NCBI RefSeq assembly: GCF_048403405.1 | Contig: NZ_CP183129.1 | Source of the DNA: Escherichia coli | GTDB taxonomy: Bacteria > Pseudomonadota > Gammaproteobacteria > Enterobacterales > Enterobacteriaceae | Length of the DNA: 64,000 bases | Strand: one strand, 5' to 3' | Shown: positions 11,691 to 41,593 of the stretch, piece by piece | Numbering within the stretch: position 1 is the stretch's first letter | Layout: each line of letters opens with the position of its first letter | Translations under genes and position numbers: made by a program | Notes under the pieces: model-generated | Database searches by the model: none | The model's input: only the letters and a program-made list of their open reading frames with translations | What the model was told of the DNA's origin: nothing

Positions 11691-14494
<2,804 letters not shown>

Positions 14495-21463: not shown

Positions 21464-21684
21464 ATTGTACCTTTTTGATTAACCATTGGGGTGAGGGAAC
21501 CCAATACGTACGACACGCTATTTTACCTTGATTAAATAACGTTCTTACCCTTTTTTCGAGCCGCCGCATGATACTGCTTTACGTTGACAATGCAATGGTT
21601 AATTTTCACGCAATCGTTAACCTGGTTTGCTTACGGACTCACAGGGCGTAAACTAGCGCCGTTTTTTTATGTGATGAGAAGAAA

Positions 21685-21930
21685 ATGACCGATCTCTTTT
21701 CCTGCCCTGACCACACACTCGACGCACTTGGCCTGCGCTGCCCGGAACCAGTCATGATGGTGCGCAAAACCGTGCGCAATATGCAGCCAGGTGAAACGTT
21801 GCTGATTATTGCTGACGATCCGGCGACGACCCGCGATATTCCTGGGTTTTGTACCTTTATGGAACACGAACTGGTTGCGAAAGAGACGGATGGACTGCCT
21901 TATCGTTATTTGATTCGCAAAGGCGGTTGA
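21685..21930 (+). CDS. tusA: Sulfur carrier protein TusA
   Basis: 81-aa ORF with CPEP motif ([12 protein letters not shown]). Confidence 0.9.
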
Positions 21931-21961
21931 TGGGGAAAGATTGGCTTCGATGCCGCCTTTT

Positions 21962-22025
21962 CCCCTCACCCTAACCCTCTCCCCAGAGGAGCGAGGGGAC
22001 CGATCGCGCTCAATGTTGCGATCGG
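21962..22025. repeat. GC-rich interspersed intergenic repeat (box-C-like) with adjacent palindrome
   Basis: Sequence cccctcaccctaaccctctccccagaggagcgaggggaccgatcg recurs at 39693..39840; family name is from memory and not certain. Confidence 0.5.
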
Positions 22026-22031
22026 TTTGCC

Positions 22032-24230
22032 TTATCTCCTGCGCAACAATCTTAACGCATTCGCTGTCACCAGCACCGTCGCACCCGTATCTGCCAGCAC
22101 CGCCAGCCATAGCCCGGTCATTCCTAACAGTGTGGTGACGAGGAAGATCCCTTTCAGCCCCAGCGCAATAGTGATGTTCTGGCGGATATTGGCGTGAGTG
22201 GCGCGTGCCAGTTCAATCATTTGCACCAGGCCGCGCAGGTGGTTATGGGTTAATGCTGCATCGGCGGTTTCCAGCGCCACGTCTGTGCCGCTACCCATTG
22301 CAATCCCGATGGCGGCAGCTTTCATCGCTGGCGCGTCGTTAATACCATCACCGACCATCGCCAGCGGCGCATGTTGATTCAGCTCGGTCACCGCTTTGAC
22401 TTTATCTTCCGGCAAGAGGCCCGCTTTAAATTCCAGCCCCAGTTCCCCGGCGATTGCCGCCGCTGCGCGTGGATTATCGCCGGTGAGGATCACTCCTTTA
22501 ACTCCCAGCGCGTTCAGTTCACTGATGGCAGTTGCAGCATCGGCGCGTAGGGTATCCTGCAATGCAATTACGCCAAGCACGTCATCGTTACGCACTACCA
22601 GCACTACCGTTTGCCCGGCGCTTTCCAGTTCATTAATCAAACCAGCAAATGCAACAGCCGGATGTTTTCCGGCAGCGCATATCAACACGCGCTCACCGTT
22701 AACCTGCGCTTCAATGCCAGACCCGACCAGCGCCCGCTGTGATTCGGCGGTGGGAATAGCGAGTTCAGCAACCTGTGCTTCGCGTACGATGGCTTGCGCC
22801 AGTGGATGCGTCGCGCCTTGCTCGACCGCCGCTGCCAGTGTCAGCAGTTCAGATTCACTAATACCCGTTGCCGGATGAATCGCGGTAACGCGCGGTTTAC
22901 CGACGGTCAGCGTACCGGTTTTATCAAACGCCACCTGGGTAACACGACCCAGTTGTTCCAGCGCCGCTCCGCCTTTAATTAACGCCCCACGACGCGCTGC
23001 TGCTGCCAGCCCGGAGGTAATCGCCGCAGGCGTTGAGATAACTAACGCACACGGGCAGCCAATCAGCAGCAGCGTCAGCCCTTTATAAATCCACTCCTGC
23101 CAGCTGGCGGCAAACAGCAGCGGTGGCACCAGCGTCACCAGCAGAGCGACGGCCATAATCGCGGGCGTATAGATACGGCTGAAACGGTCGATAAACCGCT
23201 CAATGGGTGCGCGACGCTCTTCGGCTTCTTCGATCAGTTTCAGAATCCGGTCAATGGCGCTGGCACCCGGTTCTGACAGCACTTCCAGCGTTACCAGACG
23301 GTCTACGCTGGTGGCTCCTGCAGGAACTTTATCGCCCGTCGCGCGCTCCACCGGAATGGATTCTCCGGTCAGGGCGCTTTCATCAAAACTGGCAAACGGT
23401 GAGAGCAGTTTACCGTCGGCAGGCAAACGCCCACCTGCGGCGACTTCAATCACATCGCCAGGCCGCAGGCTGTTAATCGCCACCTCTTCCCGCTCACCGT
23501 TACGCAGGCGCGTGGCGGTTTCTGGTTTCAGCGCCATTAACGCGCTAACGCCCTGACGCGCGCGGCTGGCGGCCCAGCCTTCCAGTCGTTCACCAATCAA
23601 AAACAGCAGCAACACCATCGCAGCTTCAGCCGTTGCGCCAATAAACAGCGCACCAATAGCGGCTACGCTCATTAAGGTTTCAATGGCGAAGTAGCTGCCG
23701 GATTTGATCAGCCGTAATGCCTGACGAGCAATCGGGTACAGCCCAACCAGCGTGGTCGCGATAAACGCCAGTTGCCCGAACGGATGATTAAACTGCTCCA
23801 GTCCCCAACTTACCGCCATCATCACGATTAGCGTAATCAGCGGCAAATTCTCTTTCAGGCGTGATGTTTGCGGTTCGTCGGCGGCCTGTTCATCGCGCAG
23901 GGAATAGCCCGCTTTTTGCACCGCAGATTCAACCTGGGCACGGATGTCATTGTCGGCATCAACCACCAGTTTTTCGGTGGCGAACAGTACCTGCACCTGA
24001 TTCACGCCTGCAAGCTGGCGCACGGCATTTTCTACCTTGCGCGCACAGGCGGCGCAGTCCATGCCGCTGACTTTCCAGCTATAGCGGGTGCCGGAGACGT
24101 TTTCAGAGAGCGTTGGCGTGCTGGAACATGCGCCGTCGCAGCAACAGTTGTTGGCGTTCTGTACCGCAGTTAGCGGTTTGAACGCAGCAAAGTGAGGGGC
24201 TTTCTTGCCGTGATTGTCAGGAGTCGACAT
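22032..24230 (-). CDS. zntA: Zn/Cd/Pb-exporting P-type ATPase ZntA
   Basis: 732-aa ORF; CPC motif (GCPCALVIS), DKTGTLT phosphorylation motif, N-terminal metal-binding GMDCAAC. Confidence 0.95.
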   Translation of the reverse strand: MSTPDNHGKKAPHFAAFKPLTAVQNANNCCCDGACSSTPTLSENVSGTRYSWKVSGMDCAACARKVENAVRQLAGVNQVQVLFATEKLVVDADNDIRAQVESAVQKAGYSLRDEQAADEPQTSRLKENLPLITLIVMMAVSWGLEQFNHPFGQLAFIATTLVGLYPIARQALRLIKSGSYFAIETLMSVAAIGALFIGATAEAAMVLLLFLIGERLEGWAASRARQGVSALMALKPETATRLRNGEREEVAINSLRPGDVIEVAAGGRLPADGKLLSPFASFDESALTGESIPVERATGDKVPAGATSVDRLVTLEVLSEPGASAIDRILKLIEEAEERRAPIERFIDRFSRIYTPAIMAVALLVTLVPPLLFAASWQEWIYKGLTLLLIGCPCALVISTPAAITSGLAAAARRGALIKGGAALEQLGRVTQVAFDKTGTLTVGKPRVTAIHPATGISESELLTLAAAVEQGATHPLAQAIVREAQVAELAIPTAESQRALVGSGIEAQVNGERVLICAAGKHPAVAFAGLINELESAGQTVVLVVRNDDVLGVIALQDTLRADAATAISELNALGVKGVILTGDNPRAAAAIAGELGLEFKAGLLPEDKVKAVTELNQHAPLAMVGDGINDAPAMKAAAIGIAMGSGTDVALETADAALTHNHLRGLVQMIELARATHANIRQNITIALGLKGIFLVTTLLGMTGLWLAVLADTGATVLVTANALRLLRRR

Positions 24231-24272
24231 GGCATCCTCCGGTTAAGTTTTTTCTCATTAACCGAAGGATAC

Positions 24273-24294
24273 ACTCTGGAGTCGACTCCAGAGT
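24273..24294. promoter_or_regulatory. ZntR (MerR-type) operator in zntA promoter
   Basis: Perfect palindrome actctggagtcgactccagagt about 45 bp upstream of zntA start, flanked by TTGACT on the coding strand. Confidence 0.75.
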
Positions 24295-24303
24295 CAAGTT
24301 TTA

Positions 24304-24930
24304 TCAGAGATACAGCGAGCGGACGATGAGGAAATGACCGGCAAAGTAGCAGGCCGCAGCAATCGCGTTGTCCGCACGGAAGCGTCGGCGATAGTGACTA
24401 CTCAGCCAGACAAAGTTACTGATAAATAGCAACGAAGCGCCGACAAACGCAGAGAGCGCCGGAGCGGTCGGACGGAAGAACCACAGTTCACCTGCCAGCC
24501 ACACCATCACCAGCGTCATGCCGATAAACGTGCAGATAGGCCAACGATACTCTTCCAGCCGCGTCCAGATAATCGCCAGTAACAGCGCACCCAGAACCAG
24601 CAACACCAGTGGCAGAGGCCAGAAGAAAGAGAGCGTCATCTGACTGGCGAAATAGATGGTGTACAGCAGGTGCGAGAGGAAAAACGCGCCGATGGCGTAC
24701 ATCAGACGTTGACGTGGCAACAGGGTTAGCGCATCGCCCAGCAGTGAGGCGCACAGCCCTGCCAGCACCAGATAGCTAATGGCGTCGAACATCGGCGCTT
24801 GCCAGGCCAGTAACAGCAGGAGAAGAAGGGTTAACGGTTTAAACACCCAGCGTTGCCAGGTTGGCCCACGATACGATGCATCCACAGATAGCCATGCGGA
24901 AAGACAGACAGCGATAAACGACCAAAGCAT
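24304..24930 (-). CDS. yhhN: YhhN-family membrane protein
   Basis: 208-aa multi-TM ORF; synteny. Confidence 0.85.
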
Positions 24931-25070
24931 CTTAGTTCCTTGAATTCGTTATTTTTTCGTAAGCGGAATGCCTACGGTCTTGCTTCCAGTTTAGTGGCGA
25001 GGGTGGACGGATGACAACACCATAACTCGCAGGGTATGCTTAATTCCGCATTTTCCGATGAGGGATAAAG

Positions 25071-25430
25071 ATGAGCAAACCACCTCTTTTCTTTATTGTT
25101 ATCATTGGCTTAATCATCGTCGCCGCATCGTTTCGTTTTATGCAACAACGACGGGAAAAAGCTGATAATGATATGGCACCGCTCCAGCAAAAGTTGGTGG
25201 TGGTGAGCAACAAGCGGGAAAAACCGATTAACGATCGCCGTTCGCGCCAGCAGGAAGTGACTCCGGCAGGCACCAGTATGCGCTATGAGGCAAGCTTCAA
25301 ACCGCAAAGCGGAGGAATGGAGCAGACGTTTCGCCTCGACGCCCAGCAGTACCACGCCCTGACAGTGGGCGATAAAGGTACGCTGAGCTATAAAGGAACG
25401 CGCTTTGTCAGCTTTGTTGGCGAACAATAA
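25071..25430 (+). CDS. yhhM: DUF2500-family protein YhhM
   Basis: 119-aa ORF with N-terminal TM segment; synteny. Confidence 0.8.
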   Translation: MSKPPLFFIVIIGLIIVAASFRFMQQRREKADNDMAPLQQKLVVVSNKREKPINDRRSRQQEVTPAGTSMRYEASFKPQSGGMEQTFRLDAQQYHALTVGDKGTLSYKGTRFVSFVGEQ

Positions 25431-25432
25431 GG

Positions 25433-25702
25433 TTATTTTTTAACTTTAAATTTCTTCTGCCAGACCAACAGTTCAAACACGCCGAAAAGGAAAATCCGCA
25501 CCTTTTCGGCGGTGGTCATCTGCGGGCCATCTTTCGGTAAAGTGGATTTCAATAGCGCCAGTTGCATACCATGCATCAGCACGGTAAAAATCAGCGCCAC
25601 GTTAACGAAAATATTCAGCGGACGCGGGAAGGGATGCACCAGGTTGAGGATTAAAAATCCCCAAACGCAGAGCATTAACAAACGTCCAATATTAATCAAC
25701 AT
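25433..25702 (-). CDS. yhhL: DUF1145-family small membrane protein YhhL
   Basis: Likely 89-aa product starting MLINIGRLLMLCVWGF; the longer six-frame ORF overlaps rsmD. Confidence 0.7.
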   Translation of the reverse strand: MLINIGRLLMLCVWGFLILNLVHPFPRPLNIFVNVALIFTVLMHGMQLALLKSTLPKDGPQMTTAEKVRIFLFGVFELLVWQKKFKVKK

Positions 25703-26288
25703 CACTTTCTCCTTGTGCTTCGCGTTGATACAGCCGATAAGCCACCTGACCCGCCACTTTTTCCCGATGTAATGACCAGTTCGCCGGAACAGTGGGCAGA
25801 CCGTTTTCGACTTCGCTTTCGACATAAATCAGGGCTTCGTCAGCCAGCCAGCCGTTATCTTCCAGTAAATTTATCGTCTCTTCTAACAAGCCACGGCGGA
25901 ACGGTGGATCGACAAACACGATATTATGCGGTGTGCCTTTTTGCGCCAGGAATGACATTGCGTTGCTGTTCACCACGCGTGCATTGCCTGCTTTTAGTGT
26001 CGCCAGATTCTTAATTAACTGCTGAGAAACCGCGCGATCCATCTCAATCAACGTGGCCCCCGCAGCATAGCGCGACAACGCTTCCAGCCCTAGCGCGCCG
26101 CTTCCGGCGAAGCAATCCAGACATTGGGCGTCAACAATGACCGGAGCCAGCCAGTTAAACAACGTTTCGCGTACGCGGTCGGTGGTGGGGCGCAGACCTG
26201 GGCTATCAGGAACCGGGAGTTTACGGCCTCGCCACTGCCCGCCAATAATGCGGATTTGGCCGCTGCCGGAATGATTCGGTTTTTTCAT
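25692..26288 (-). CDS. rsmD: 16S rRNA (guanine966-N2)-methyltransferase RsmD
   Basis: 198-aa ORF with methyltransferase motifs (DCFAGSGALGLEALSR ... VFVDPPF). Confidence 0.9.
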   Translation of the reverse strand: MKKPNHSGSGQIRIIGGQWRGRKLPVPDSPGLRPTTDRVRETLFNWLAPVIVDAQCLDCFAGSGALGLEALSRYAAGATLIEMDRAVSQQLIKNLATLKAGNARVVNSNAMSFLAQKGTPHNIVFVDPPFRRGLLEETINLLEDNGWLADEALIYVESEVENGLPTVPANWSLHREKVAGQVAYRLYQREAQGESDVD

Positions 26289-26437
26289 GATAAATTGCTC
26301 AATCCGCCAGATAACACATACTTGCAGGCGGTGATGTGAATTAAGTTAAGTGATAGACTATTTCATCATTTTTTTAGCTGCTATGTACATAGCGTTAACG
26401 CTGTGCCATGAAGCAACAGCGAGGAGTGTAGTCGCAA

Positions 26438-27934
26438 ATGGCGAAAGAAAAAAAACGTGGCTTTTTTTCCTGGCTGGGCTTTGGTCAAAAAGAGCAAACC
26501 CCGGAAAAAGAGACAGAAGTTCAGAATGAACAACCGGTTGTAGAAGAAATCGTTCCGGCGCAAGAGCCTGCGAAGGCTTCTGAACAAGCCGTTGAAGAGC
26601 AGCCGCAGGCGCATACTGAAGCCGAGGCGGAAACTTTTGCTGCCGACGTTGTGGAAGTCACTGAACAGGTTGCTGAAAGTGAAAAAGCGCAGCCTGAAGC
26701 GGAAGTCGTTGCACAGCCGGAACCGGTCGTAGAAGAAACGCCGGAGCCAGTGGCTATCGAGCGTGAAGAGCTGCCGTTGCCGGAGGACGTCAACGCCGAA
26801 GAGGTTTCGCCAGAAGAGTGGCAGGCCGAAGCGGAAACCGTAGAGATTGTCGAAGCGGCGGAAGAAGAAGCGGCTAAAGAAGAAATCACCGACGAAGAGC
26901 TGGAAGCACAGGCGCTGGCTGCCGAAGCGGCAGAAGAGGCGGTGATGGTGGTTCCTCCGGCAGAAGAAGAGCAGCCGGTGGAAGAAATCGCTCAGGAGCA
27001 GGAAAAACCGACCAAAGAAGGTTTCTTCGCGCGCCTGAAACGCAGCCTGTTAAAAACCAAAGAAAATCTCGGTTCCGGATTTATCAGCCTGTTCCGCGGT
27101 AAAAAAATCGACGATGATCTGTTTGAAGAGCTGGAAGAACAGCTGTTGATCGCCGATGTGGGCGTGGAAACCACACGTAAAATTATCACCAATCTGACAG
27201 AAGGCGCATCCCGCAAGCAGCTTCGTGATGCCGAGGCGCTCTATGGCCTGCTGAAAGAAGAGATGGGCGAGATTCTGGCGAAAGTCGATGAGCCGCTGAA
27301 TGTTGAAGGTAAAACGCCGTTCGTGATCCTGATGGTAGGCGTCAACGGTGTGGGTAAAACCACGACGATTGGTAAGCTGGCGCGTCAGTTTGAGCAGCAG
27401 GGTAAATCGGTGATGCTGGCGGCGGGCGATACTTTCCGTGCGGCAGCGGTTGAACAGCTTCAGGTCTGGGGTCAGCGCAACAATATTCCGGTGATTGCCC
27501 AGCATACCGGTGCGGATTCCGCCTCTGTTATCTTCGACGCCATTCAGGCCGCTAAAGCGCGTAATATCGACGTCCTGATTGCCGATACCGCCGGACGCCT
27601 GCAGAACAAATCGCACCTGATGGAAGAGTTGAAGAAAATCGTCCGCGTGATGAAGAAACTCGACGTTGAAGCGCCGCATGAAGTTATGCTGACTATCGAT
27701 GCCAGCACCGGGCAGAACGCGGTAAGCCAGGCCAAACTGTTCCATGAAGCCGTTGGCTTAACCGGCATCACGCTAACGAAACTGGACGGCACGGCGAAAG
27801 GCGGGGTAATTTTCTCGGTGGCTGACCAGTTTGGTATCCCTATCCGCTACATTGGTGTCGGCGAACGTATTGAGGATTTGCGTCCGTTTAAGGCGGACGA
27901 CTTTATAGAGGCACTTTTTGCCCGAGAGGATTAA
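26438..27934 (+). CDS. ftsY: Signal recognition particle receptor FtsY
   Basis: 498-aa ORF; acidic N-terminal A domain, NG domain with GVNGVGKTTT and DTAGR motifs. Confidence 0.95.
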   Translation: MAKEKKRGFFSWLGFGQKEQTPEKETEVQNEQPVVEEIVPAQEPAKASEQAVEEQPQAHTEAEAETFAADVVEVTEQVAESEKAQPEAEVVAQPEPVVEETPEPVAIEREELPLPEDVNAEEVSPEEWQAEAETVEIVEAAEEEAAKEEITDEELEAQALAAEAAEEAVMVVPPAEEEQPVEEIAQEQEKPTKEGFFARLKRSLLKTKENLGSGFISLFRGKKIDDDLFEELEEQLLIADVGVETTRKIITNLTEGASRKQLRDAEALYGLLKEEMGEILAKVDEPLNVEGKTPFVILMVGVNGVGKTTTIGKLARQFEQQGKSVMLAAGDTFRAAAVEQLQVWGQRNNIPVIAQHTGADSASVIFDAIQAAKARNIDVLIADTAGRLQNKSHLMEELKKIVRVMKKLDVEAPHEVMLTIDASTGQNAVSQAKLFHEAVGLTGITLTKLDGTAKGGVIFSVADQFGIPIRYIGVGERIEDLRPFKADDFIEALFARED

Positions 27935-27936
27935 CA

Positions 27937-28605
27937 ATGATTCGCTTTGAACATGTCAGCAAGGCTTATCTCGGTGGGAGACAGGCGCTGCAGGGCGTTA
28001 CGTTCCATATGCAGCCGGGTGAGATGGCGTTTCTGACCGGTCATTCCGGCGCAGGGAAAAGTACCCTCCTGAAGCTGATCTGTGGGATTGAGCGGCCCAG
28101 CGCCGGGAAAATCTGGTTTAGCGGCCATGACATCACGCGTCTGAAAAACCGTGAAGTTCCGTTTCTGCGCCGCCAGATTGGCATGATTTTCCAGGATCAC
28201 CATCTACTGATGGACCGTACTGTCTACGATAACGTGGCGATCCCGCTGATTATCGCCGGTGCCAGCGGTGACGATATTCGTCGCCGGGTGTCGGCGGCAC
28301 TGGATAAAGTCGGGCTACTGGACAAAGCGAAGAACTTTCCTATTCAGCTTTCCGGCGGTGAACAACAGCGTGTTGGCATTGCCCGCGCGGTGGTGAACAA
28401 GCCCGCGGTACTGCTGGCGGATGAACCGACTGGTAACCTTGACGACGCGTTGTCAGAAGGGATTTTACGTCTGTTTGAAGAGTTTAACCGCGTTGGGGTA
28501 ACCGTATTGATGGCAACGCACGACATCAACCTGATCTCGCGGCGTTCCTATCGCATGCTCACCCTGAGCGATGGTCACTTGCATGGAGGCGTGGGCCATG
28601 AATAA
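27937..28605 (+). CDS. ftsE: Cell division ATP-binding protein FtsE
   Basis: 222-aa ABC ATPase ([17 protein letters not shown]). Confidence 0.95.
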
Positions 28606-29656
28606 GCGCGATGCAATCAATCATATTCGGCAGTTTGGCGGGCGTCTGGATCGCTTCCGTAAATCGGTCGGCGGCTCAGGCGACGGCGGTCGTAACGCGC
28701 CGAAACGCGCGAAATCCTCGCCAAAACCGGTAAATCGCAAAACCAACGTTTTCAACGAACAGGTGCGCTATGCCTTCCACGGCGCATTGCAGGATCTGAA
28801 AAGCAAACCGTTCGCCACGTTTTTAACGGTGATGGTTATCGCCATCTCTCTGACGCTGCCCAGCGTCTGTTATATGGTGTACAAAAACGTTAACCAGGCG
28901 GCGACGCAGTATTATCCGTCACCGCAAATCACTGTTTATCTGCAAAAAACGCTGGACGATGACGCTGCTGCGGGCGTGGTGGCACAGTTGCAGGCCGAGC
29001 AAGGCGTGGAGAAAGTGAACTATCTTTCTCGTGAAGACGCGCTGGGCGAGTTCCGTAACTGGTCTGGTTTTGGTGGTGCGCTGGATATGCTGGAAGAAAA
29101 CCCGCTTCCGGCAGTGGCGGTGGTGATCCCGAAACTCGATTTTCAGGGGACAGAATCACTGAATACGCTGCGTGATCGTATCACCCAGATCAACGGCATT
29201 GACGAAGTGCGGATGGATGACAGCTGGTTTGCCCGTCTGGCGGCGTTAACCGGGCTGGTCGGGCGCGTTTCGGCGATGATCGGCGTGTTGATGGTGGCGG
29301 CAGTGTTCCTCGTCATCGGCAACAGTGTGCGTCTGAGCATCTTTGCTCGCCGTGACTCCATTAACGTGCAGAAACTGATTGGTGCGACGGATGGTTTCAT
29401 CCTGCGCCCGTTCCTGTACGGAGGCGCATTGCTGGGATTTTCTGGCGCATTGCTGTCATTAATTTTGTCAGAAATTCTGGTACTGCGTTTGTCATCGGCG
29501 GTTGCAGAAGTGGCACAGGTTTTCGGAACGAAGTTTGATATCAATGGCTTATCGTTCGATGAATGCCTGCTGTTGCTGCTGGTATGCTCGATGATTGGCT
29601 GGGTGGCAGCGTGGCTTGCCACGGTACAACATTTACGCCACTTTACGCCTGAATAA
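28598..29656 (+). CDS. ftsX: Cell division permease-like protein FtsX
   Basis: Start [13 protein letters not shown] (352 aa), overlapping ftsE end; 4 TM segments. Confidence 0.9.
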
Positions 29657-29779
29657 TAAAAGCGTGTTATACTCTTTCCCTGCAATGGGTTCCGTAGCAG
29701 GGAAAGAGACCCCGTTGTCTCTTCCCGGTATTTCATCTCTATGTCACATTTTGTGCGTAATTTATTCACAAGCTTGCAT

Positions 29780-29806
29780 TGAACTTGTGGATAAAATCAC
29801 GGTCTG
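29780..29806 (+). promoter_or_regulatory. Sigma-E dependent promoter (rpoH P3-like): GAACTT-N16-TCTGA
   Basis: Motif gaacttgtggataaaatcacggtctga read directly about 100 bp upstream of rpoH. Confidence 0.65.
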
Positions 29807-29900
29807 ATAAAACAGTGAATGATAACCTCGTTGCTCTTAAGCTCTGGCACAGTTGTTGCTACCACTGAAGCGCCAGAAGATATCGATTGAGAGGATTTGA

Positions 29901-30755
29901 ATGACTGACAAAATGCAAAGTTTAGCTTTAGCCCCAGTTGGCAACCTGGATTCCTACATCCGGGCAGCTAGCGCGTGGCCGATGTTGTCGGCTGACGAGG
30001 AGCGGGCGCTGGCTGAAAAGCTGCATTACCATGGCGATCTGGAAGCAGCTAAAACGCTGATCCTGTCTCACCTGCGGTTTGTTGTTCATATTGCTCGTAA
30101 TTATGCGGGCTATGGCCTGCCACAGGCGGATTTGATTCAGGAAGGTAACATCGGCCTGATGAAAGCAGTGCGCCGTTTTAACCCGGAAGTGGGTGTGCGC
30201 CTGGTCTCCTTCGCCGTCCACTGGATCAAAGCAGAGATCCACGAATACGTTCTGCGTAACTGGCGTATCGTCAAAGTTGCGACCACCAAAGCGCAGCGCA
30301 AACTGTTCTTCAACCTGCGTAAAACCAAGCAGCGTCTGGGCTGGTTTAACCAGGATGAAGTTGAAATGGTGGCCCGTGAACTGGGCGTAACCAGCAAAGA
30401 CGTACGTGAGATGGAGTCGCGTATGGCGGCACAGGACATGACCTTTGACCTGTCTTCCGACGACGATTCCGATAGCCAGCCGATGGCTCCGGTGCTCTAT
30501 CTGCAGGATAAATCATCTAACTTTGCTGACGGCATTGAAGATGATAACTGGGAAGAGCAGGCGGCAAACCGTCTGACCGACGCGATGCAAGGTCTGGACG
30601 AGCGTAGCCAGGATATCATCCGCGCGCGCTGGCTGGACGAAGACAACAAGTCCACGTTGCAGGAACTGGCTGACCGTTACGGTGTTTCCGCTGAGCGTGT
30701 GCGCCAGCTGGAAAAGAACGCGATGAAAAAACTTCGCGCTGCCATTGAAGCGTAA
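29901..30755 (+). CDS. rpoH: RNA polymerase sigma-32 factor RpoH
   Basis: 284-aa ORF; [24 protein letters not shown]-terminus; sigma-70 family regions. Confidence 0.95.
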
Positions 30756-30776
30756 TTTCCGCTACTAAGCAGAGAA

Positions 30777-30808
30777 CCCTGGATGAGAATCCGGGGTTTT
30801 TGTTTTTT
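30777..30808 (+). terminator. Rho-independent terminator after rpoH
   Basis: Hairpin ccctgga...tccgggg followed by tttttgtttttt. Confidence 0.6.
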
Positions 30809-31026
30809 GGGCCTCTGCAATAATCAGTTTCCCCTTCTGGCAAAACGCCAATCCCCACGCAGATTGTTAATAAACTGTCAAAATAGCTATTCCAATATCA
30901 TAAAAATCGGGTATGTTTTAGCAGAGTATGCTGCTAAAGCACGGGTAGTCATGCATAAAACGAAATAAAGTGCTGAACAACAACATCACAACACACGTAA
31001 TAACCAGAAGAATGGGGAACCTCAGG

Positions 31027-32130
31027 ATGAACATGAAGGGTAAAGCGTTACTGGCAGGATGTATCGCGCTGGCATTCAGCAATATGGCTCTGGCAGAAGA
31101 TATTAAAGTCGCGGTCGTGGGCGCAATGTCCGGTCCGGTGGCCCAGTACGGTGACCAGGAGTTTACTGGTGCTGAGCAGGCGGTTGCGGATATCAATGCT
31201 AAAGGTGGTATCAAAGGCAACAAACTGCAAATCGTGAAATATGACGATGCCTGTGACCCGAAACAGGCGGTTGCGGTGGCGAACAAAGTCGTTAACGACG
31301 GCATTAAATATGTGATTGGTCACCTCTGTTCTTCATCAACGCAGCCAGCGTCAGACATCTACGAAGACGAAGGCATTTTAATGATCACCCCAGCGGCAAC
31401 CGCACCAGAGCTGACCGCCCGTGGCTATAACTTGATTATGCGCACCACCGGTCTGGACTCCGACCAGGGGCCGACGGCGGCGAAATATATTCTTGAGAAA
31501 GTGAAACCGCAGCGTATTGCTATCGTCCACGACAAACAGCAGTACGGCGAAGGTCTGGCGCGTGCGGTGCAGGACGGCCTGAAGAAAGGCAATGCTAACG
31601 TGGTGTTCTTTGATGGCATCACCGCCGGGGAAAAAGATTTCTCTACGCTGGTGGCGCGTCTGAAAAAAGAGAATATCGACTTCGTTTACTACGGCGGTTA
31701 TCACCCGGAAATGGGGCAGATCCTGCGTCAGGCACGCGCGGCAGGGTTGAAAACTCAGTTTATGGGGCCGGAAGGCGTGGCTAACGTCTCGCTGTCTAAC
31801 ATTGCGGGCGAATCAGCGGAAGGGCTGCTGGTGACCAAGCCGAAGAACTACGATCAGGTTCCGGCGAACAAACCCATTGTTGACGCGATCAAAGCGAAAA
31901 AACAGGACCCAAGCGGCGCGTTCGTCTGGACCACCTACGCCGCGCTGCAATCTTTGCAGGCGGGCCTGAATCAGTCTGACGATCCGGCAGAAATCGCCAA
32001 ATACCTGAAAGCGAACTCCGTGGATACCGTGATGGGACCGCTGACCTGGGATGAGAAAGGCGATCTGAAAGGCTTTGAGTTCGGCGTATTTGACTGGCAC
32101 GCCAACGGCACGGCGACTGATGCGAAGTAA
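31027..32130 (+). CDS. livJ: Leu/Ile/Val-binding periplasmic protein LivJ
   Basis: Start [23 protein letters not shown] (signal peptide); paralogous to livK product. Confidence 0.9.
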
Positions 32131-32187
32131 TCATTAATCGGCAACTTTGGGTTGCCGCCAAATTGCTAATATCGAGTACGTTGCTTC

Positions 32188-32288
<101 letters not shown>

Positions 32289-32329
32289 AATTTCTCGTTG
32301 GTCGTCACTTTTGAAATCAAACTTGACGA

Positions 32330-32713
32330 TTAACGCTTCTCCCAGCCGCCCTGTTGTGCCGTAAATCCCAGAGCCTGCATAAACGCTGTCATCACGCCGC
32401 GATCTTCCATGCCTGCATCCGCCATCCACCAGCATGAAACGCCAGGATTGTTACGCAAAACCTCTTCCAGCAGATATTGCCCCACACCGCGACGGCGGGT
32501 GACTTCCCGCACGCGCAGGGAATCCAGTGCGCCCTCCGTGCCGCTTAAGGTTACCCGCACGGCCGCGAGAAGGCGCTCGTTAAAACGCGCGGCGTAGATA
32601 CGGTGGTTATCGTCAACCTGTAAAGAGGAAGGGGAATACTCCGGCCAGATCTTTTGCAGGTCAATCTGGTCCTGGTCGCTAAAGTTTTCTAATCGAATGA
32701 TGGTCAGCTTCAT
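32330..32713 (-). CDS. panM: PanD maturation factor PanM (GNAT family)
   Basis: 127-aa ORF; position between livJ and livK. Confidence 0.85.
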   Translation of the reverse strand: MKLTIIRLENFSDQDQIDLQKIWPEYSPSSLQVDDNHRIYAARFNERLLAAVRVTLSGTEGALDSLRVREVTRRRGVGQYLLEEVLRNNPGVSCWWMADAGMEDRGVMTAFMQALGFTAQQGGWEKR

Positions 32714-33136
32714 GGGGAACCCGTGTAAATCACAAAAGTGGAACCAGTGTAGCGAAATAATTTAATCGGAGGCTTTCTCTTTTTTATTTCTTTTGGCAGG
32801 TGATTAATTTTTTAACAGCAATAATTACAAAGTTAAAACATTAGAGAATGAAAAATACCCAGCATAATCCCCTGAATGGTAGTGAATTATTCCGCCCTTT
32901 GTGCCGTTATTTTATGCTGACAACGGCACTTTTTTCTGTTTATCTATCAATAAATGCAGAATATTATCTGTTCTTAATCGACTGAAAAATAGGGATTTTA
33001 ATCGCTATTATCACAAAATACTGCGCTAAACCCTTAATCAGACAGGCAAAAACAGTGCAGTATAAAAAAAGAACAGTCTGATTTGTTAACACATAAAAAC
33101 AAAGCAACACAACATCACGAATGGGGATTTTTGACT

Positions 33137-34246
33137 ATGAAACGGAATGCGAAACCTATCATCGCAGGGATGATTGCACTGGCAATTTCACACACCGCTA
33201 TGGCTGACGATATTAAAGTCGCCGTTGTCGGCGCGATGTCCGGCCCGATTGCCCAGTGGGGCGATATGGAATTTAACGGCGCGCGTCAGGCGATTAAAGA
33301 CATTAATGCCAAAGGGGGAATTAAAGGCGATAAGCTGGTTGGCGTGGAATATGACGACGCCTGCGACCCGAAACAAGCCGTTGCGGTCGCCAACAAAATC
33401 GTTAACGACGGCATTAAATACGTTATTGGGCACTTGTGTTCCTCCTCTACCCAACCTGCATCAGATATCTACGAAGACGAAGGTATTCTGATGATCTCGC
33501 CGGGAGCGACCAACCCGGAGCTGACCCAACGCGGTTATCAATACATCATGCGTACTGCCGGGCTGGACTCTTCCCAGGGGCCAACGGCGGCAAAATACAT
33601 TCTTGAGACGGTGAAGCCCCAGCGCATCGCCATCATTCATGACAAACAACAGTATGGCGAAGGGCTGGCACGTTCGGTGCAGGACGGGCTGAAAGCGGCT
33701 AACGCCAACGTCGTCTTCTTCGACGGCATCACCGCTGGCGAGAAAGATTTCTCCGCGCTGATCGCCCGCCTGAAAAAAGAAAATATCGACTTCGTTTACT
33801 ACGGCGGTTACTACCCGGAAATGGGGCAGATGCTGCGCCAGGCCCGTTCTGTCGGCCTGAAAACCCAATTTATGGGGCCGGAAGGTGTGGGTAATGCGTC
33901 GTTGTCGAATATTGCTGGCGATGCTGCCGAAGGCATGTTGGTCACTATGCCAAAACGCTATGACCAGGATCCGGCAAATCAGGGCATCGTTGATGCGCTG
34001 AAAGCAGACAAGAAAGATCCGTCCGGGCCATATGTCTGGATCACTTACGCGGCGGTGCAATCTCTGGCGACTGCACTTGAGCGTACCGGCAGCGATGAGC
34101 CGCTGGCACTGGTGAAAGATTTAAAAGCTAACGGTGCAAACACCGTGATTGGGCCGCTGAACTGGGATGAAAAAGGCGATCTTAAGGGATTTGATTTTGG
34201 TGTCTTCCAGTGGCACGCCGACGGTTCATCCACGGCAGCCAAGTGA
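33137..34246 (+). CDS. livK: Leucine-specific binding protein LivK
   Basis: Start [23 protein letters not shown]; 369 aa; paralog of LivJ. Confidence 0.9.
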
Positions 34247-34293
34247 TCATCCCACCGCCCGTAAAATGCGGGCGGGTTTAGAAAGGTTACCTT

Positions 34294-35220
34294 ATGTCTG
34301 AGCAGTTTTTGTATTTCTTGCAGCAGATGTTTAACGGCGTCACGCTGGGCAGTACCTACGCGCTGATAGCCATCGGCTACACCATGGTTTACGGCATTAT
34401 CGGCATGATCAACTTCGCCCACGGCGAGGTTTATATGATTGGTAGCTATGTCTCCTTTATGATCATCGCCGCACTGATGATGATGGGCATTGATACCGGC
34501 TGGCTGCTGGTGGCGGCGGGATTCGTCGGCGCAATCGTCATTGCCAGCGCCTACGGCTGGAGTATCGAACGGGTAGCCTATCGTCCGGTGCGTAACTCTA
34601 AGCGCCTGATTGCGCTTATTTCCGCAATCGGCATGTCTATCTTCCTGCAAAACTACGTTAGCCTGACCGAAGGTTCGCGCGACGTGGCGCTGCCCAGCCT
34701 GTTTAACGGTCAGTGGGTGGTGGGCCATAGCGAAAACTTCTCTGCCTCTATTACCACCATGCAGGCGGTGATATGGATTGTTACTTTCCTCGCCATGCTG
34801 GCGCTGACGATTTTCATTCGCTATTCCCGTATGGGGCGCGCCTGCCGTGCCTGCGCGGAAGATCTGAAAATGGCGAGCCTGCTTGGCATCAACACCGACC
34901 GGGTGATTGCGCTGACCTTTGTGATTGGCGCGGCGATGGCGGCGGTGGCGGGTGTGCTGCTCGGTCAGTTCTACGGCGTCATTAACCCCTACATCGGCTT
35001 TATGGCCGGGATGAAAGCCTTTACCGCTGCGGTGCTCGGTGGGATTGGCAGCATTCCGGGAGCGATGATTGGCGGCCTGATTCTGGGGATTGCGGAGGCG
35101 CTCTCTTCTGCCTATCTGAGTACGGAATATAAAGATGTGGTCTCATTCGCCCTGCTGATTCTGGTGTTGCTGGTGATGCCGACCGGTATTCTGGGTCGCC
35201 CGGAGGTAGAGAAAGTATGA
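34294..35220 (+). CDS. livH: Branched-chain amino acid ABC permease LivH
   Basis: 308-aa multi-TM ORF; operon order. Confidence 0.95.
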
Positions 35221-36494
35221 AACCGATGCATATTGCAATGGCGCTGCTTTCTGCCGCGATGTTCTTTGTCCTCGCTGGCGTCTTTATGGGCGTGCAACTG
35301 GAGCTGGATGGCACCAAACTGGTGGTCGATAGCGCTTCGGATGTCCGTTGGCAGTGGGTGTTTATCGGCACGGCGGTGGTCTTTTTCTTCCAGCTTTTGC
35401 GACCGGCTTTCCAGAAAGGGTTGAAAAGCATTTCCGGACCGAAGTTTATTCTGCCAGCGATTGATGGCTCCACGGTGAAGCAAAAGCTGTTTCTCGTGGC
35501 GCTGCTGGTGCTTGCGGTGGCGTGGCCGTTTATGGTTTCACGTGGGACGGTGGATATCGCCACTCTGACCATGATCTACATTATTCTTGGTCTCGGGCTG
35601 AACGTGGTGGTAGGGCTTTCTGGTCTGCTGGTGCTCGGTTACGGCGGCTTTTACGCCATCGGCGCTTACACCTTTGCGCTGCTCAATCACTATTACGGTC
35701 TGGGGTTCTGGACCTGTCTGCCGATTGCCGGGTTAATGGCGGCGGCGGCGGGCTTCCTGCTCGGCTTTCCGGTGCTGCGTCTGCGCGGTGACTATCTGGC
35801 GATCGTTACCCTCGGTTTCGGCGAAATTGTGCGCATATTGCTGCTCAATAACACCGAAATCACCGGCGGCCCGAACGGGATCAGTCAGATCCCGAAACCG
35901 ACTTTTTTCGGCCTTGAGTTCAGCCGTACCGCTCGTGAAGGCGGCTGGGACACGTTCAGTAATTTCTTTGGCCTGAAATACGATCCCTCCGATCGTGTCA
36001 TCTTCCTCTACCTGGTGGCGTTGCTGCTGGTGGTGCTAAGCCTGTTTGTCATTAACCGCCTGCTGCGGATGCCGCTGGGGCGTGCGTGGGAAGCGTTACG
36101 TGAAGATGAAATCGCCTGCCGTTCGCTGGGCTTAAGCCCGCGTCGTATCAAGCTGACTGCCTTTACCATAAGTGCCGCGTTTGCCGGTTTTGCCGGAACG
36201 CTGTTTGCTGCGCGTCAGGGCTTTGTCAGCCCGGAATCCTTCACCTTTGCTGAATCAGCCTTTGTACTGGCGATAGTGGTGCTCGGCGGTATGGGCTCGC
36301 AATTTGCAGTGATTCTGGCGGCTGTTCTGCTGGTGGTATCGCGCGAGTTGATGCGTGATTTCAACGAATACAGCATGTTAATGCTCGGTGGTTTGATGGT
36401 GCTGATGATGATCTGGCGTCCGCAGGGCTTGCTGCCCATGACGCGCCCGCAACTGAAGCTGAAAAACGGCGCAGCGAAAGGAGAGCAGGCATGA
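35217..36494 (+). CDS. livM: Branched-chain amino acid ABC permease LivM
   Basis: 425-aa multi-TM ORF; 4-bp overlap with livH. Confidence 0.95.
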
Positions 36495-37258
36495 GTCAGC
36501 CATTATTATCCGTTAACGGCCTGATGATGCGCTTCGGCGGCCTGCTGGCGGTGAACAACGTCAATCTCGAATTGTACCCGCAGGAGATCGTCTCGTTAAT
36601 CGGCCCTAACGGTGCCGGAAAAACCACGGTCTTCAACTGCCTGACCGGATTCTACAAACCCACCGGCGGTACCATTTTACTGCGCGATCAGCACCTGGAA
36701 GGTTTACCGGGGCAGCAAATCGCCCGCATGGGCGTGGTGCGCACCTTCCAGCATGTGCGTCTGTTCCGTGAAATGACGGTGATTGAAAACCTGCTGGTGG
36801 CGCAGCATCAGCAACTGAAAACCGGGCTGTTCTCTGGCCTGTTGAAAACGCCTTCTTTCCGTCGCGCCCAGAGCGAAGCGCTCGACCGCGCCGCTACCTG
36901 GCTTGAGCGCATTGGTTTGCTGGAACATGCCAACCGTCAGGCGAGTAACCTGGCCTATGGTGACCAGCGTCGTCTGGAGATTGCCCGCTGCATGGTGACG
37001 CAGCCGGAGATTTTAATGCTCGACGAACCTGCGGCAGGTCTTAACCCGAAAGAGACGAAAGAGCTGGATGAGCTGATTGCCGAACTGCGTAACCATCACA
37101 ACACCACTATCTTGTTGATTGAACACGATATGAAGCTGGTGATGGGGATTTCAGACAGAATTTACGTGGTCAATCAGGGGACGCCGCTGGCAAACGGTAC
37201 GCCGGAGCAGATCCGTAATAACCCGGACGTGATCCGTGCCTATTTAGGTGAGGCATAA
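36491..37258 (+). CDS. livG: Branched-chain amino acid ABC ATPase LivG
   Basis: 255-aa ORF, Walker [10 protein letters not shown]. Confidence 0.95.
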
Positions 37259-37259
37259 G

Positions 37260-37973
37260 ATGGAAAAAGTCATGTTGTCCTTTGACAAAGTCAGCGCCCA
37301 CTACGGCAAAATCCAGGCGCTGCATGAGGTGAGCCTGCATATCAATCAGGGCGAAATTGTCACGCTGATTGGCGCGAACGGGGCGGGGAAAACCACCTTG
37401 CTCGGCACGTTATGCGGCGACCCACGCGCCACCAGCGGGCGAATTGTGTTTGATGATAAAGACATTACCGACTGGCAGACGGCGAAAATCATGCGCGAAG
37501 CGGTGGCGATTGTCCCGGAAGGACGCCGCGTCTTCTCGCGGATGACGGTGGAAGAGAACCTGGCGATGGGCGGTTTTTTTGCTGAACGTGACCAGTTCCA
37601 GGAACGCATAAAGTGGGTGTATGAACTGTTTCCACGTCTGCATGAGCGCCGTGTTCAGCGGGCGGGCACCATGTCCGGCGGTGAGCAGCAGATGCTGGCG
37701 ATTGGTCGCGCGCTGATGAGCAACCCGCGTTTATTGTTGCTTGATGAGCCATCGCTCGGTCTTGCGCCGATTATCATCCAGCAAATTTTCGACACCATCG
37801 AGCAGCTGCGCGAGCAGGGGATGACTATCTTCCTCGTTGAGCAGAACGCCAACCAGGCGCTGAAGCTCGCTGATCGCGGCTACGTTCTGGAAAACGGTCA
37901 TGTGGTGCTCTCCGATACCGGCGACGCGCTGCTGGCAAATGAAGCGGTGAGAAGTGCGTATTTAGGCGGGTAA
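37260..37973 (+). CDS. livF: Branched-chain amino acid ABC ATPase LivF
   Basis: Start MEKVMLSFDKV; Walker A GANGAGKTT; 237 aa. Confidence 0.9.
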   Translation: MEKVMLSFDKVSAHYGKIQALHEVSLHINQGEIVTLIGANGAGKTTLLGTLCGDPRATSGRIVFDDKDITDWQTAKIMREAVAIVPEGRRVFSRMTVEENLAMGGFFAERDQFQERIKWVYELFPRLHERRVQRAGTMSGGEQQMLAIGRALMSNPRLLLLDEPSLGLAPIIIQQIFDTIEQLREQGMTIFLVEQNANQALKLADRGYVLENGHVVLSDTGDALLANEAVRSAYLGG

Positions 37974-38040
37974 TAACACGTTGATTGATAAGGAGTCAAA
38001 AGACTCCTTTGAGACAGGTTACAAATGTAAAATTGCCTGA

Positions 38041-38143
<103 letters not shown>

Positions 38144-38233
38144 GAGCAATCTGTAGAGTTTGATTCAGACCTTCTATTTTTCCCGCTTATCCGTGCCCCA
38201 TCTCCCATTTTCCCTCACCCGTACCGTCACCGC

Positions 38234-38274
38234 CTTGTCATCTTTCTGACACCTTACTATCTTACAAATGTAAC
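38234..38274 (+). promoter_or_regulatory. Candidate PhoB boxes in ugpB promoter
   Basis: cttgtcatctttctgacacc resembles pho-box consensus CTGTCATA-N4-CTGTCAT; upstream of ugpB. Confidence 0.4.
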
Positions 38275-38370
38275 AAAAAAGTTATTTTTCTGTAATTCGA
38301 GCATGTCATGTTACCCCGCGAGCATAAAACGCGTGAATTCGCGCATTCGGTACAACAAGAGAGATAAACG

Positions 38371-39687
38371 ATGAAACCGTTACATTATACAGCTTCAGCA
38401 CTGGCGCTCGGACTGGCGTTAATGGGGAATGCACAGGCAGTGACGACCATTCCGTTCTGGCATTCTATGGAAGGGGAACTGGGTAAAGAGGTGGATTCTC
38501 TGGCCCAACGTTTTAACGCCGAAAACCCGGATTACAAAATTGTACCGACCTATAAAGGCAACTACGAACAGAATTTAAGCGCGGGGATTGCCGCATTTCG
38601 TACCGGCAACGCTCCGGCTATTTTGCAGGTTTATGAAGTTGGCACCGCCACCATGATGGCGTCGAAAGCCATTAAACCGGTGTATGACGTGTTTAAAGAG
38701 GCGGGGATTCAGTTCGATGAGTCGCAGTTTGTGCCGACGGTTTCAGGCTATTACTCCGACAGCAAAACCGGCCACTTACTCTCCCAGCCGTTCAACAGCT
38801 CGACTCCTGTTCTCTATTACAACAAAGACGCCTTCAAGAAAGCGGGGTTAGACCCGGAACAGCCGCCGAAAACCTGGCAGGATCTGGCGGACTATGCCGC
38901 GAAACTGAAAGCCTCCGGTATGAAGTGCGGCTACGCCAGCGGCTGGCAGGGCTGGATCCAACTGGAAAACTTTAGCGCCTGGAACGGTCTGCCGTTTGCC
39001 AGCAAAAACAACGGCTTTGACGGCACAGACGCGGTGCTGGAGTTCAACAAGCCGGAGCAGGTGAAACACATCGCTATGCTCGAAGAGATGAACAAGAAGG
39101 GCGATTTCAGCTACGTCGGGCGTAAGGATGAATCCACTGAGAAGTTCTATAACGGTGATTGCGCGATGACCACCGCCTCTTCCGGTTCTCTCGCCAACAT
39201 TCGCGAGTACGCCAAATTTAACTACGGCGTAGGCATGATGCCTTACGACGCCGATGCGAAAGATGCGCCACAAAACGCCATTATCGGCGGAGCCAGCTTG
39301 TGGGTAATGCAGGGTAAAGATAAAGAAACTTATACGGGTGTGGCGAAGTTCCTCGACTTCCTCGCGAAGCCAGAAAACGCTGCCGAGTGGCATCAGAAAA
39401 CTGGTTATCTGCCAATCACCAAAGCGGCGTATGACCTGACCCGTGAGCAGGGTTTTTATGAGAAAAACCCAGGGGCGGATACCGCGACGCGTCAGATGCT
39501 GAATAAGCCGCCGTTACCGTTCACCAAAGGGCTGCGTCTGGGTAACATGCCGCAGATCCGCGTGATTGTGGATGAAGAGCTGGAGAGCGTGTGGACCGGT
39601 AAGAAGACACCACAGCAGGCACTGGATACCGCCGTTGAGCGTGGGAACCAGTTACTGCGCCGCTTTGAGCAGTCTACGAAGTCTTAA
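38371..39687 (+). CDS. ugpB: sn-glycerol-3-phosphate-binding periplasmic protein UgpB
   Basis: 438-aa ORF with signal peptide; operon order. Confidence 0.95.
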
Positions 39688-39692
39688 TTCTC

Positions 39693-39840
39693 TTACCCTC
39701 ACCCTAACCCTCTCCCAAAGGGAGAGGGGACCGATCGGCGTGGTATCCAGGTGCCGTGTCGGTTTGCAACTTCGCTCGGTGGGAAAGTATGCACCGCCTT
39801 TCTCCCTCGCCCCTCTGGGGAGAGGGCCGGGGTGAGGGGA
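39693..39840. repeat. GC-rich interspersed repeat (box-C-like), inverted pair
   Basis: ccctcaccctaaccctctcccaaagggagaggggaccgatcg and its inverse ccctctggggagagggccggggtgagggg; matches copy at 21962. Confidence 0.5.
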
Positions 39841-39862
39841 TCACAACACGAAGAGTTTAACT

Positions 39863-40750
39863 ATGTCATCATCCCGTCCGGTGTTCCGCTCGCGCTGGCT
39901 GCCCTATTTGCTGGTCGCGCCGCAGCTCATCATCACCGTTATCTTTTTTATCTGGCCTGCGGGCGAAGCGTTGTGGTACTCGCTGCAAAGCGTCGATCCG
40001 TTTGGTTTCTCCAGCCAGTTTGTCGGCCTGGATAACTTCGTCACGCTGTTTCATGACAGCTACTATCTCGACTCCTTCTGGACGACGATAAAATTCAGCA
40101 CCTTTGTCACCGTCAGTGGTTTGCTGGTGTCGCTGTTCTTTGCGGCGCTGGTGGAGTACATCGTGCGCGGCAGCCGTTTCTATCAAACCTTGATGCTGCT
40201 GCCGTATGCCGTGGCTCCCGCCGTTGCCGCCGTATTGTGGATCTTCCTGTTTAACCCTGGTCGCGGGCTGATCACCCATTTTCTCGCTGAGTTCGGCTAC
40301 GACTGGAACCACGCGCAAAACAGCGGTCAGGCGATGTTTCTGGTGGTGTTTGCCTCGGTGTGGAAGCAAATCAGCTACAACTTTCTGTTCTTCTATGCCG
40401 CGCTGCAATCCATTCCCCGTTCGTTGATCGAAGCCGCAGCCATCGACGGTGCAGGCCCGATTCGCCGCTTCTTTAAGATTGCGCTGCCGCTTATCGCTCC
40501 GGTGAGTTTCTTCCTGCTGGTGGTGAACCTGGTGTACGCCTTCTTCGACACCTTCCCGGTGATCGACGCCGCCACGTCCGGCGGGCCGGTTCAGGCCACC
40601 ACGACGCTGATTTATAAGATTTACCGCGAAGGCTTTACCGGACTGGATCTGGCTTCGTCTGCCGCGCAGTCGGTGGTGTTGATGTTCCTCGTCATCGTGC
40701 TGACGGTGGTGCAGTTCCGCTATGTTGAAAGCAAGGTGCGTTACCAATGA
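39863..40750 (+). CDS. ugpA: G3P ABC transporter permease UgpA
   Basis: 295-aa multi-TM ORF. Confidence 0.95.
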
Positions 40751-41592: not shown

Positions 41593-41593
41593 G

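Follow-up and report, generated by a model that had tools for sequence, protein, structure and literature searches.

Repeat units in the tusA-zntA and ugpB-ugpA spacers

We analysed a GC-rich interspersed repeat in a 64,000-nucleotide stretch of Escherichia coli DNA (contig NZ_CP183129.1; this whole stretch is called the window below). The repeat lies after tusA and, as an inverted pair, between ugpB and ugpA. It is very probable that its three units are interspersed repeats of the family known as BoxC, PIT or TMECO, the tusA unit being a passive old single and the ugp pair a lineage-restricted allele. The genes and units at the two sites are listed below.

21685-21930, plus strand: tusA (gene call)
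21950-22011, minus strand: extended type-A BoxC, core and flanks (side-by-side listing of 23 K-12 and three window copies)
21963-21997, minus strand: BoxC unit, type A (TTA loop), with weakened C-arm CCCTCGCTC; ortholog of K-12 no. 16
22032-24230, minus strand: zntA (gene call)
38371-39687, plus strand: ugpB (gene call)
39688-39862, plus strand: ugpB-ugpA spacer, BoxC-pair allele (fold, scans and allele counts)
39696-39728, minus strand: BoxC unit, type A (second loop TTA); perfect 9-bp hairpin with TTT loop, -9.6 kcal/mol as DNA
39729-39803, plus strand: linker between the ugp units, 75 nt (alignment)
39804-39838, plus strand: BoxC unit, type B (CCG loop), with one stem mismatch
39863-40750, plus strand: ugpA, 295 aa (gene call)

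The tusA and zntA genes converge, and the first copy lies inside their 101-bp spacer. The ugpB and ugpA genes point the same way within the operon, with a spacer of 175 bp that the inverted pair fills. A first-pass annotation, made by a model from the letters alone, had named these neighbours correctly at both sites, and pattern matching bore out its positions for a GC-rich motif, downstream of tusA and, as an inverted pair, in the ugpB-ugpA spacer. Its count of two copies holds for the intergenic sites, but the number of units is three (21963-21997, 39696-39728, and 39804-39838). In a pattern scan of the window, CCCTCACCCTAACCCTCTCC was matched exactly at 21963-21982 and 39696-39715, both on the plus strand, and with three mismatches on the opposite strand at 39819-39838, which is a diverged inverted copy. 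The second half of the motif as given in that annotation, ggagaggggaccgatcg, is exact in the left ugp unit, but the tusA copy only approximates it with gagcgaggggaccgatcg. The spurious LTLTLS-type open reading frames (ORFs) that it mentioned are present at both loci in the six-frame ORF list; the translation of ORF 21941-22138 includes PLTLTLSPEERGDRS, and that of ORF 39566-39835 includes SLTLTLTLSQRERGPIG. Both regions of the window are 100% identical to E. coli strain TUM14771.

The box-C name, which had been offered with reserve, is supported by the published description of the family and by the fit of the window units to the published pattern and list. Holder et al. (2015) treated BoxC, TMECO, and the PIT elements of Hoyne and Maher (2000/2002) as one family with the pattern CCCTCNCCC-N3-6-GGGNGAGGG-N3-GGGNGAGGG, in which the second loop is TTA in type A and CCG in type B and published inverted pairs always combine one A and one B (PMC4666352). 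This strict pattern matched 39696-39728 on the minus strand and 39804-39838 on the plus strand, with zero matches expected. The ugp pair follows the pairing rule with one type A and one type B unit, and the tusA unit is type A. The tusA unit was missed by the strict pattern owing to window base 21990, which is a in the window and g in K-12. Both of its G-arms are exact and its C-arm CCCTCGCTC is one base off the pattern, which the K-12 ortholog does match; in published terms, the unit fits the description of a mutated TMECO. That ortholog is no. 16 in Table 1 of the 23 copies published for K-12, at 3,608,684-3,608,719 (PMC4666352), and the supplement lists its flanking genes as zntA/tusA (PMC4666352 supplement). 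Its orthology to window 21963-21997 was established by sequence comparison. The motif thus re-identifies an already known family, and the tusA-zntA locus already stands in the published table.

The anatomy of the unit was obtained from the side-by-side listing of the 23 published K-12 copies and the three window copies. The unit is a G/C-rich sequence of 33 to 36 nt with three 9-nt arms, namely, CCCTCNCCC, a loop, GGGAGAGGG, a 3-nt loop, and GGGTGAGGG. Type A units are preceded by g.gc....cggtc and followed by gaacaggcc.gcac or gaaaaggc.gca; in the tusA unit, these flanks are gagcgcgatcggtc on the 5' side and gaaaaggc.gca on the 3' side. Type B units are preceded by ttttct and followed by catcagcgcgcac or taaatattcgcgcc. 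The string cggtttgc, which follows the tusA and ugp type-A units, was rejected as a part of BoxC; in other strains, it leads into a REP cluster. With its conserved flanks, the extended type-A unit measures about 56 nt, and BoxC has been entered as a 56-bp element with 32 copies (PMC2267715). One K-12 unit of the listing, BoxC no. 9, is located upstream of fabI. This is presumably the site where boxC was first noted, and boxC was reportedly described by Bergler in 1992 and by Bachellier in the 1990s. The Watson-Crick DNA hairpins of the window units were predicted at -9.1 to -10.1 kcal/mol. In published work, single strands of PIT/TMECO of type A, type B, and mismatch variants formed an intrastrand purine-motif triplex in vitro, as determined by circular dichroism and nuclear magnetic resonance (PMC4666352).

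The listing also placed the ugp pair among the known pairs. Four K-12 pairs run B(+) then A(-) with linkers of 16 to 27 nt. The lldD-trmL pair is the only one in K-12 that runs A(-) then B(+), and with its 59-nt linker it is the nearest analogue of the ugp pair with its 75-nt linker. The ugp linker starts with gaccgatcggcg, as in the lldD-trmL pair, and ends with caccgcctttct, the usual type-B 5' flank. The left ugp unit begins 8 nt past the ugpB stop codon, and the right unit ends 24 nt ahead of the ugpA start codon. K-12 BoxC units were also seen inside other operons, at pstA-pstB (L135) and yihS-yihR (L137); pst, like ugp, belongs to the Pho regulon.

Next, we examined the copy number, which the first-pass annotation had proposed as a check. 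With a 78-nt query around the tusA unit, 84,880 matching places were counted over 5425 E. coli genomes, with a median of 17 and a maximum of 32 places per genome, and the motif is therefore not confined to the two loci. Some genomes had a single matching place, which in the listed cases was the tusA-zntA copy. Both window sites are intergenic, as expected of BoxC. A chance likeness of GC-rich, low-complexity sequence, which has only simple composition in its favour, can be discarded, given 0.00 matches to CCCTCACCCTAACCCTCTCC in 100 shuffles, zero likewise for each of three patterns, and about 85,000 places across E. coli genomes. It is also very improbable that the units belong to REP/BIME or to another named family, such as RSA or ERIC/IRU. 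Palindromic intergenic repeats share their general behaviour, and the 143-bp span of the ugp pair is near the 152 bp of RSA. However, the window units agree base for base with the published TMECO list, and the REP sequence (gccggatgcg.../gtaggccggataag) that sits between ugpB and ugpA in K-12 is unrelated to the window spacer. The REP consensus (GCCGGATGCGGCG... / GTAGGCCGGATAAG...) was absent from both window spacers and present in the ugpB-ugpA spacer of K-12 and of strain 2 HS-C. Rfam gave no family at the gathering threshold at either site, only sub-threshold noise.

Alleles, folding and possible role of the two spacers

The tusA unit is a single type-A unit that is old, slightly decayed, and nearly universal, and it most likely lacks a function of its own. 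The best match to the 78-nt stretch around it had at least 99% identity in 2645 records, and all 30 matches listed for this query were 100% identical and located at the tusA-zntA locus. The tusA-zntA spacer (21931-22031) was seen in at least four E. coli alleles when the window was compared with three further loci (L140, L141, and L142). The first allele has BoxC alone (window and K-12), the second has BoxC and three REPs, the third has a truncated BoxC, a REP, and an ORF for a 102-aa hypothetical membrane protein, and in the fourth (L142) the core is gone and the flank gaccgatcgcgctc is retained together with REPs and the ORF. The alleles compared showed neither a clean empty site nor a target duplication; the alternative alleles differ across the whole spacer.

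The ugp pair showed a different distribution. The flanking coding sequence of the ugp spacer was found in 5421 of the 5426 complete E. coli genomes, and a 181-nt spacer query was covered to at least 80% in 317 of the 5426 (about 6%), with a range of 317 to 382 for the BoxC allele. In most sampled rows, 82% of the query was covered and the span was 78 bp shorter. This class was read in two genomes only, K-12 and 2 HS-C, both of which carry a REP pair in a 97-bp ugpB-ugpA spacer. The flanks of BoxC carriers were at least 98.1% identical to the window and those of strains with the REP allele at most 96.9% (sampled rows), a split more in keeping with one diverged haplotype than with repeated insertion of the BoxC allele. 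The alleles differ over the whole spacer and the last ugpB codons, and hence no clean empty site, nor a target duplication, was seen among those compared. In addition, the ugpA-ugpQ part (40274-43274) is 95.5% identical to K-12, and the 18.5 kb upstream is 97.1% identical. The lower identity over ugpA-ugpQ would fit a diverged ugp haplotype that travels with the BoxC allele. Database UgpA entries (P0001-P0004, P0010, and P0011) have 299 to 407 aa, compared with 295 aa here; in these, the start codon was probably assigned further upstream, within the repeat-filled spacer or past it.

Spacers of other Enterobacterales were read as well, and the RNA folding that the first-pass annotation had suggested for the ugpB-ugpA spacer was carried out. 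The occupants and predicted RNA structures are as follows.

E. coli, window (BoxC pair): -87.3 kcal/mol, z -3.1
E. coli, REP allele: -53 kcal/mol, z -5.5
Klebsiella-named cluster representative: REP pair; -59 kcal/mol, z -5.8
Salmonella-named contig: REP pair
Enterobacter sp. Ap-916 group: decayed BoxC-like pair, with a ugpB 3' end like that of the window; -50 kcal/mol, z -3.9
Pluralibacter: simple CT/GA hairpin followed by a T run; -20.7 kcal/mol, z -3.5

The window spacer RNA was predicted to form one long, strong structure in which the two BoxC units pair with each other. A stable hairpin lies just past ugpB in every ugpB-ugpA spacer examined, irrespective of its sequence; in the spacers of other Enterobacterales (L144, L146/L147, L148, and L143), it starts within about 10 to 20 nt of the ugpB stop codon. 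Because both states occur in other Enterobacterales, the REP and BoxC occupants would be old or exchanged between species.

REP pairs act as barriers to 3'-exonucleolytic decay that favour the upstream binding-protein message, or as stop-codon-proximal structures that affect translation. A search of the literature library for REPs between ugpB and ugpA or near stop codons yielded nothing of use. The ugp pair would be transcribed within the ugpBAECQ mRNA, and a very stable fold is predicted to begin 8 nt past the ugpB stop codon; for these reasons, the pair may act as REP pairs do. It could block 3'-to-5' decay, to the benefit of the ugpB segment, or be a stop-codon-proximal structure that affects ugpB translation. 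We put this role forward tentatively, as a possibility that falls somewhat short of an even chance, and under it the pair would not be a terminator.

The first-pass annotation had suggested that the pair may modulate operon polarity. Of such effects, only one on RNA stability is still plausible. That the pair terminates or attenuates transcription and so makes the expression of ugpAECQ polar is improbable. A very stable GC-rich structure does lie between two cistrons, and by eye the spacer RNA opens with 21 nt that are rich in C and free of G, a composition like that of Rho-loading sites. However, neither hairpin is followed by a U run, and scans of 21600-22400 and 39400-40100 found no promoter-like or terminator-like site at or beside the repeat units of either spacer. 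The sole terminator-like site of the first scan (21645-21660) is upstream of tusA, and the second scan had none. PIT elements showed no terminator activity in published tests (PMC4666352). Strong polarity would also be expected to be counter-selected because ugpA, ugpE, and ugpC are needed with ugpB for transport.

Several points weigh against the reading of the ugp pair as a structured allele that stands in for a REP pair. The z score of the BoxC spacer (-3.1) is weaker than those of the REP alleles. In published work, PIT elements had neither promoter nor terminator activity, no effect on polymerase in vivo, and no consistent distance from genes, and the published footprint did not support a triplex in vivo (PMC4666352). 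That the remaining strains carry the REP pair is an extrapolation from the two genomes read.

The re-identification alone matters little, as the repeat family has been known since the 1990s. The ugpB-ugpA spacer is of greater interest as a natural allele swap, in which one stable palindromic repeat, REP, has given way to another of unrelated sequence, BoxC, at the same position just past a binding-protein gene. With this swap, one could cleanly test whether it is the structure of such repeats, and not their sequence, that counts.

DUF559 genes bracketed by BoxC units

The exact pattern also occurs outside E. coli chromosomes. In a scan of one genome per species, whose listed matches cover a handful of genomes and give the breadth of occurrence rather than a taxonomic distribution, at least 145 copies were found in the examined parts of the genome of Mitsuaria chitosanitabida, a betaproteobacterium. 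At least 13 copies were among the matches listed for a Methylomirabilota metagenome-assembled genome (MAG), and a Contendobacter MAG and an unclassified one contained further copies. An all-against-all comparison of ORFs near the Mitsuaria BoxC units revealed no recurrent transposase, only ordinary paralogous families. The Mitsuaria ORFs that lie between two BoxC units led to genes of the DUF559 domain, as listed here with those of other bacteria and K-12.

L047 5896-6336, L048 1128-1568, and L050 about 11500-12020: Mitsuaria DUF559 genes bracketed by BoxC
L155 3062-3457, L158 2526-2903, and L159 3230-3671: bracketed DUF559 genes of other bacteria
L153 508-861: K-12 ycjD (DUF559)

These genes suggest that BoxC units may be the terminal inverted repeats of a selfish module for a DUF559 endonuclease (Vsr-like, PD-(D/E)XK), with single units and A+B pairs, the three units of the window among them, as its non-autonomous remnants, comparable to MITEs beside transposons or REP/REPIN beside RAYT. 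We hold this possibility to be less likely than its contrary. BoxC would then be the ends of a widespread DUF559 module, with B upstream, A downstream, and ycjD as the gene in E. coli; the dispersed units would be gene-less derivatives that spread or were homogenised through the endonuclease. This extension is put forward just as tentatively.

In Mitsuaria, two paralogous 139-aa DUF559 genes and a third, broken copy are each bracketed by BoxC, with a plus-strand unit about 24 nt ahead of the ATG and a minus-strand unit that overlaps the 3' end of the gene. Outside the units, the sequences of the three copies are unrelated. The Mitsuaria loci had, however, been picked for having BoxC, and the count is conditional on that choice. 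The same bracketed layout was present in the DNA of four independent contigs of other bacteria (L154, L155, L158, and L159), and the bracketed genes matched PF04480 DUF559 with E values of 1e-38 to 1e-49 (about 1e-38 in Mitsuaria). In L159, the upstream loop is CCG (type B) and the downstream loop TTA (type A); in L158, these are CTA and TTA. All four K-12 head-to-head pairs run B(+) then A(-), which is the orientation of the module, and a module with B upstream and A downstream would explain why pairs always combine A and B. However, the window ugp pair has the opposite order, A(-) then B(+), which would be expected of a junction between two modules and not of a module that lost its gene.

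In addition to the DNA layout, the DUF559 domain alone was searched against 1.84 billion cluster representatives, and the best 150 matches were examined for BoxC-encoded peptides by the signatures PHPxPLP, PSPxPSP, LTLxLS, and GEGxGEG. Such peptides stood beside the domain in 39 of these 150 diverse representatives and in none of 120 UgpA controls, a set that comes from another library and spans a narrower range of taxa. Among the 150, a C-rich-strand signature came directly after the domain in 28 and a G-rich-strand signature directly before it in eight.

The E. coli gene gave further, mixed evidence. The product of ycjD ends in ...RRSPSP followed by a TGA stop within a BoxC-A-like hairpin. 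A partial duplicate of the 3' end of ycjD lies downstream, followed by the intact BoxC no. 9 about 130 nt away. However, ycjD has no BoxC unit upstream, and only its 3' side is BoxC-like. We know of no other DUF559 gene in K-12, although no search aimed at one was made. The gene is present in about 3330 to 3380 of the 5426 E. coli genomes, and in an evenly spaced sample of 59 genomes the median number of BoxC places was 18 (range 10-27) with ycjD and 10 (range 1-15) without it (Mann-Whitney, p = 6e-9); these statistics ignore kinship, and the correlation is confounded by phylogeny. A pristine ugp pair is present in at least one strain, FDAARGOS_1286, in which ycjD is absent. As for the enzyme, one member of the Vsr/DUF559 clade is a homing endonuclease of a group I intron (PMC3424549). 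Among solved structures, YcjD is nearest to 3HRL, which is described as an 'endonuclease-like protein' and is uncharacterised. The loci compared, as described above, offered neither a clean empty site nor a target duplication for such a module, and its mobility and cleavage by the endonuclease are proposals drawn from sequence comparison.

A search of the literature library for a link of BoxC to RAYT, DUF559, or ycjD found nothing, and the link to DUF559 is apparently unreported. To our knowledge, BoxC has gone thirty years without a known origin or function. If the link holds, YcjD would be the candidate enzyme in E. coli, one open to direct testing. Through the module, BoxC would gain an origin, parallel to REP-RAYT but with a different nuclease fold, and the endonuclease would explain both the spread of BoxC and the published genomic instability around its units. 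Compared with what was known, the present analysis adds that the ugp pair is an allele of about 6% that replaces a REP pair, that it is unlikely to be a terminator, and that the family is apparently tied to DUF559 genes.

Copies of a BoxC sequence were also observed on plasmids. A 35-nt stretch equal to window 39696-39730 had matches in 207 plasmid records, of which 204 reached at least 99% identity, with Klebsiella (106), Aeromonas (31), Citrobacter (26), and Enterobacter (20) among the genera. It was read in A. hydrophila pGSH8-2 (L151 3000-3036) and in a 6.7-kb Klebsiella ColRNAI plasmid (L152 2501-2535). In both, it lies 50 nt past a 123-aa hypothetical ORF in a segment of about 640 bp between ISApu2 and ISApu1 (IS4-like). 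Holder et al. reported no plasmid association (PMC4666352).

Other features of the window and known repeat systems

Further repeats and an RNA gene were observed elsewhere in the window.

2897-3196 and 7746-8045: direct repeat of 300 nt, 92% identity, 4.8 kb apart; further short exact repeats lie nearby, for example 3283-3319, equal to 8132-8168
32185-32302 and 38021-38138: stretches of 118 nt each with 85% mutual complementarity, resembling BIME clusters; the first follows livJ and the second lies upstream of ugpB; REP sequence TAAACGCCTTATCCGGCCTACAA is in at least the first (32185-32302)
49009-49073, plus strand: RyhB small RNA gene (Rfam RF00057, 83 bits)

The BoxC units can be compared with several known systems. 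Like MITEs, they are short, non-coding, and bounded by inverted repeats, show insertion polymorphism between strains, and have longer gene-carrying relatives with the same ends. In contrast to MITEs, no target-site duplication or clean empty site was seen, and no transposase was associated with them. The window units share with the published TMECO the three-arm sequence, the A and B loops, the A+B inverted pairing, the intergenic location, and the multiple copies. They differ in the tusA copy, where an additional mismatch in one arm puts the sequence outside the strict pattern. Compared with the K-12 BoxC set, the ugpB-ugpA pair is absent from K-12, and its outward order, A(-) then B(+), is less common.

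The likeness to REP/BIME and REPIN-RAYT is closer in behaviour than in sequence. Both are intergenic palindromes that occur singly or as inverted pairs of two subtypes with characteristic linkers, and between ugpB and ugpA a REP pair takes this place in K-12 and in all further REP-type spacers that were read; the sequences of REP and BoxC are, however, unrelated. REPs flank RAYT genes, and in several bacteria a small gene of nuclease fold, DUF559, is flanked by BoxC units. Genes flanked by inverted repeats were found here in Mitsuaria (three copies) and on four other contigs, which is a matter of analogy only. RAYT is a Y1 (IS200/IS605-like) transposase, whereas the BoxC-associated gene has the PD-(D/E)XK fold of DUF559. 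Membership of BoxC in REPIN-RAYT was rejected because the flanked genes are DUF559 and not Y1 transposases.

Finally, malE-malF is the paradigm of a REP-type mRNA stabiliser between binding-protein and permease genes. The sequence family of such stabilisers differs from that of the BoxC allele, but both have a stable stem-loop directly 3' of a gene for a periplasmic binding protein of an ATP-binding cassette (ABC) transporter.

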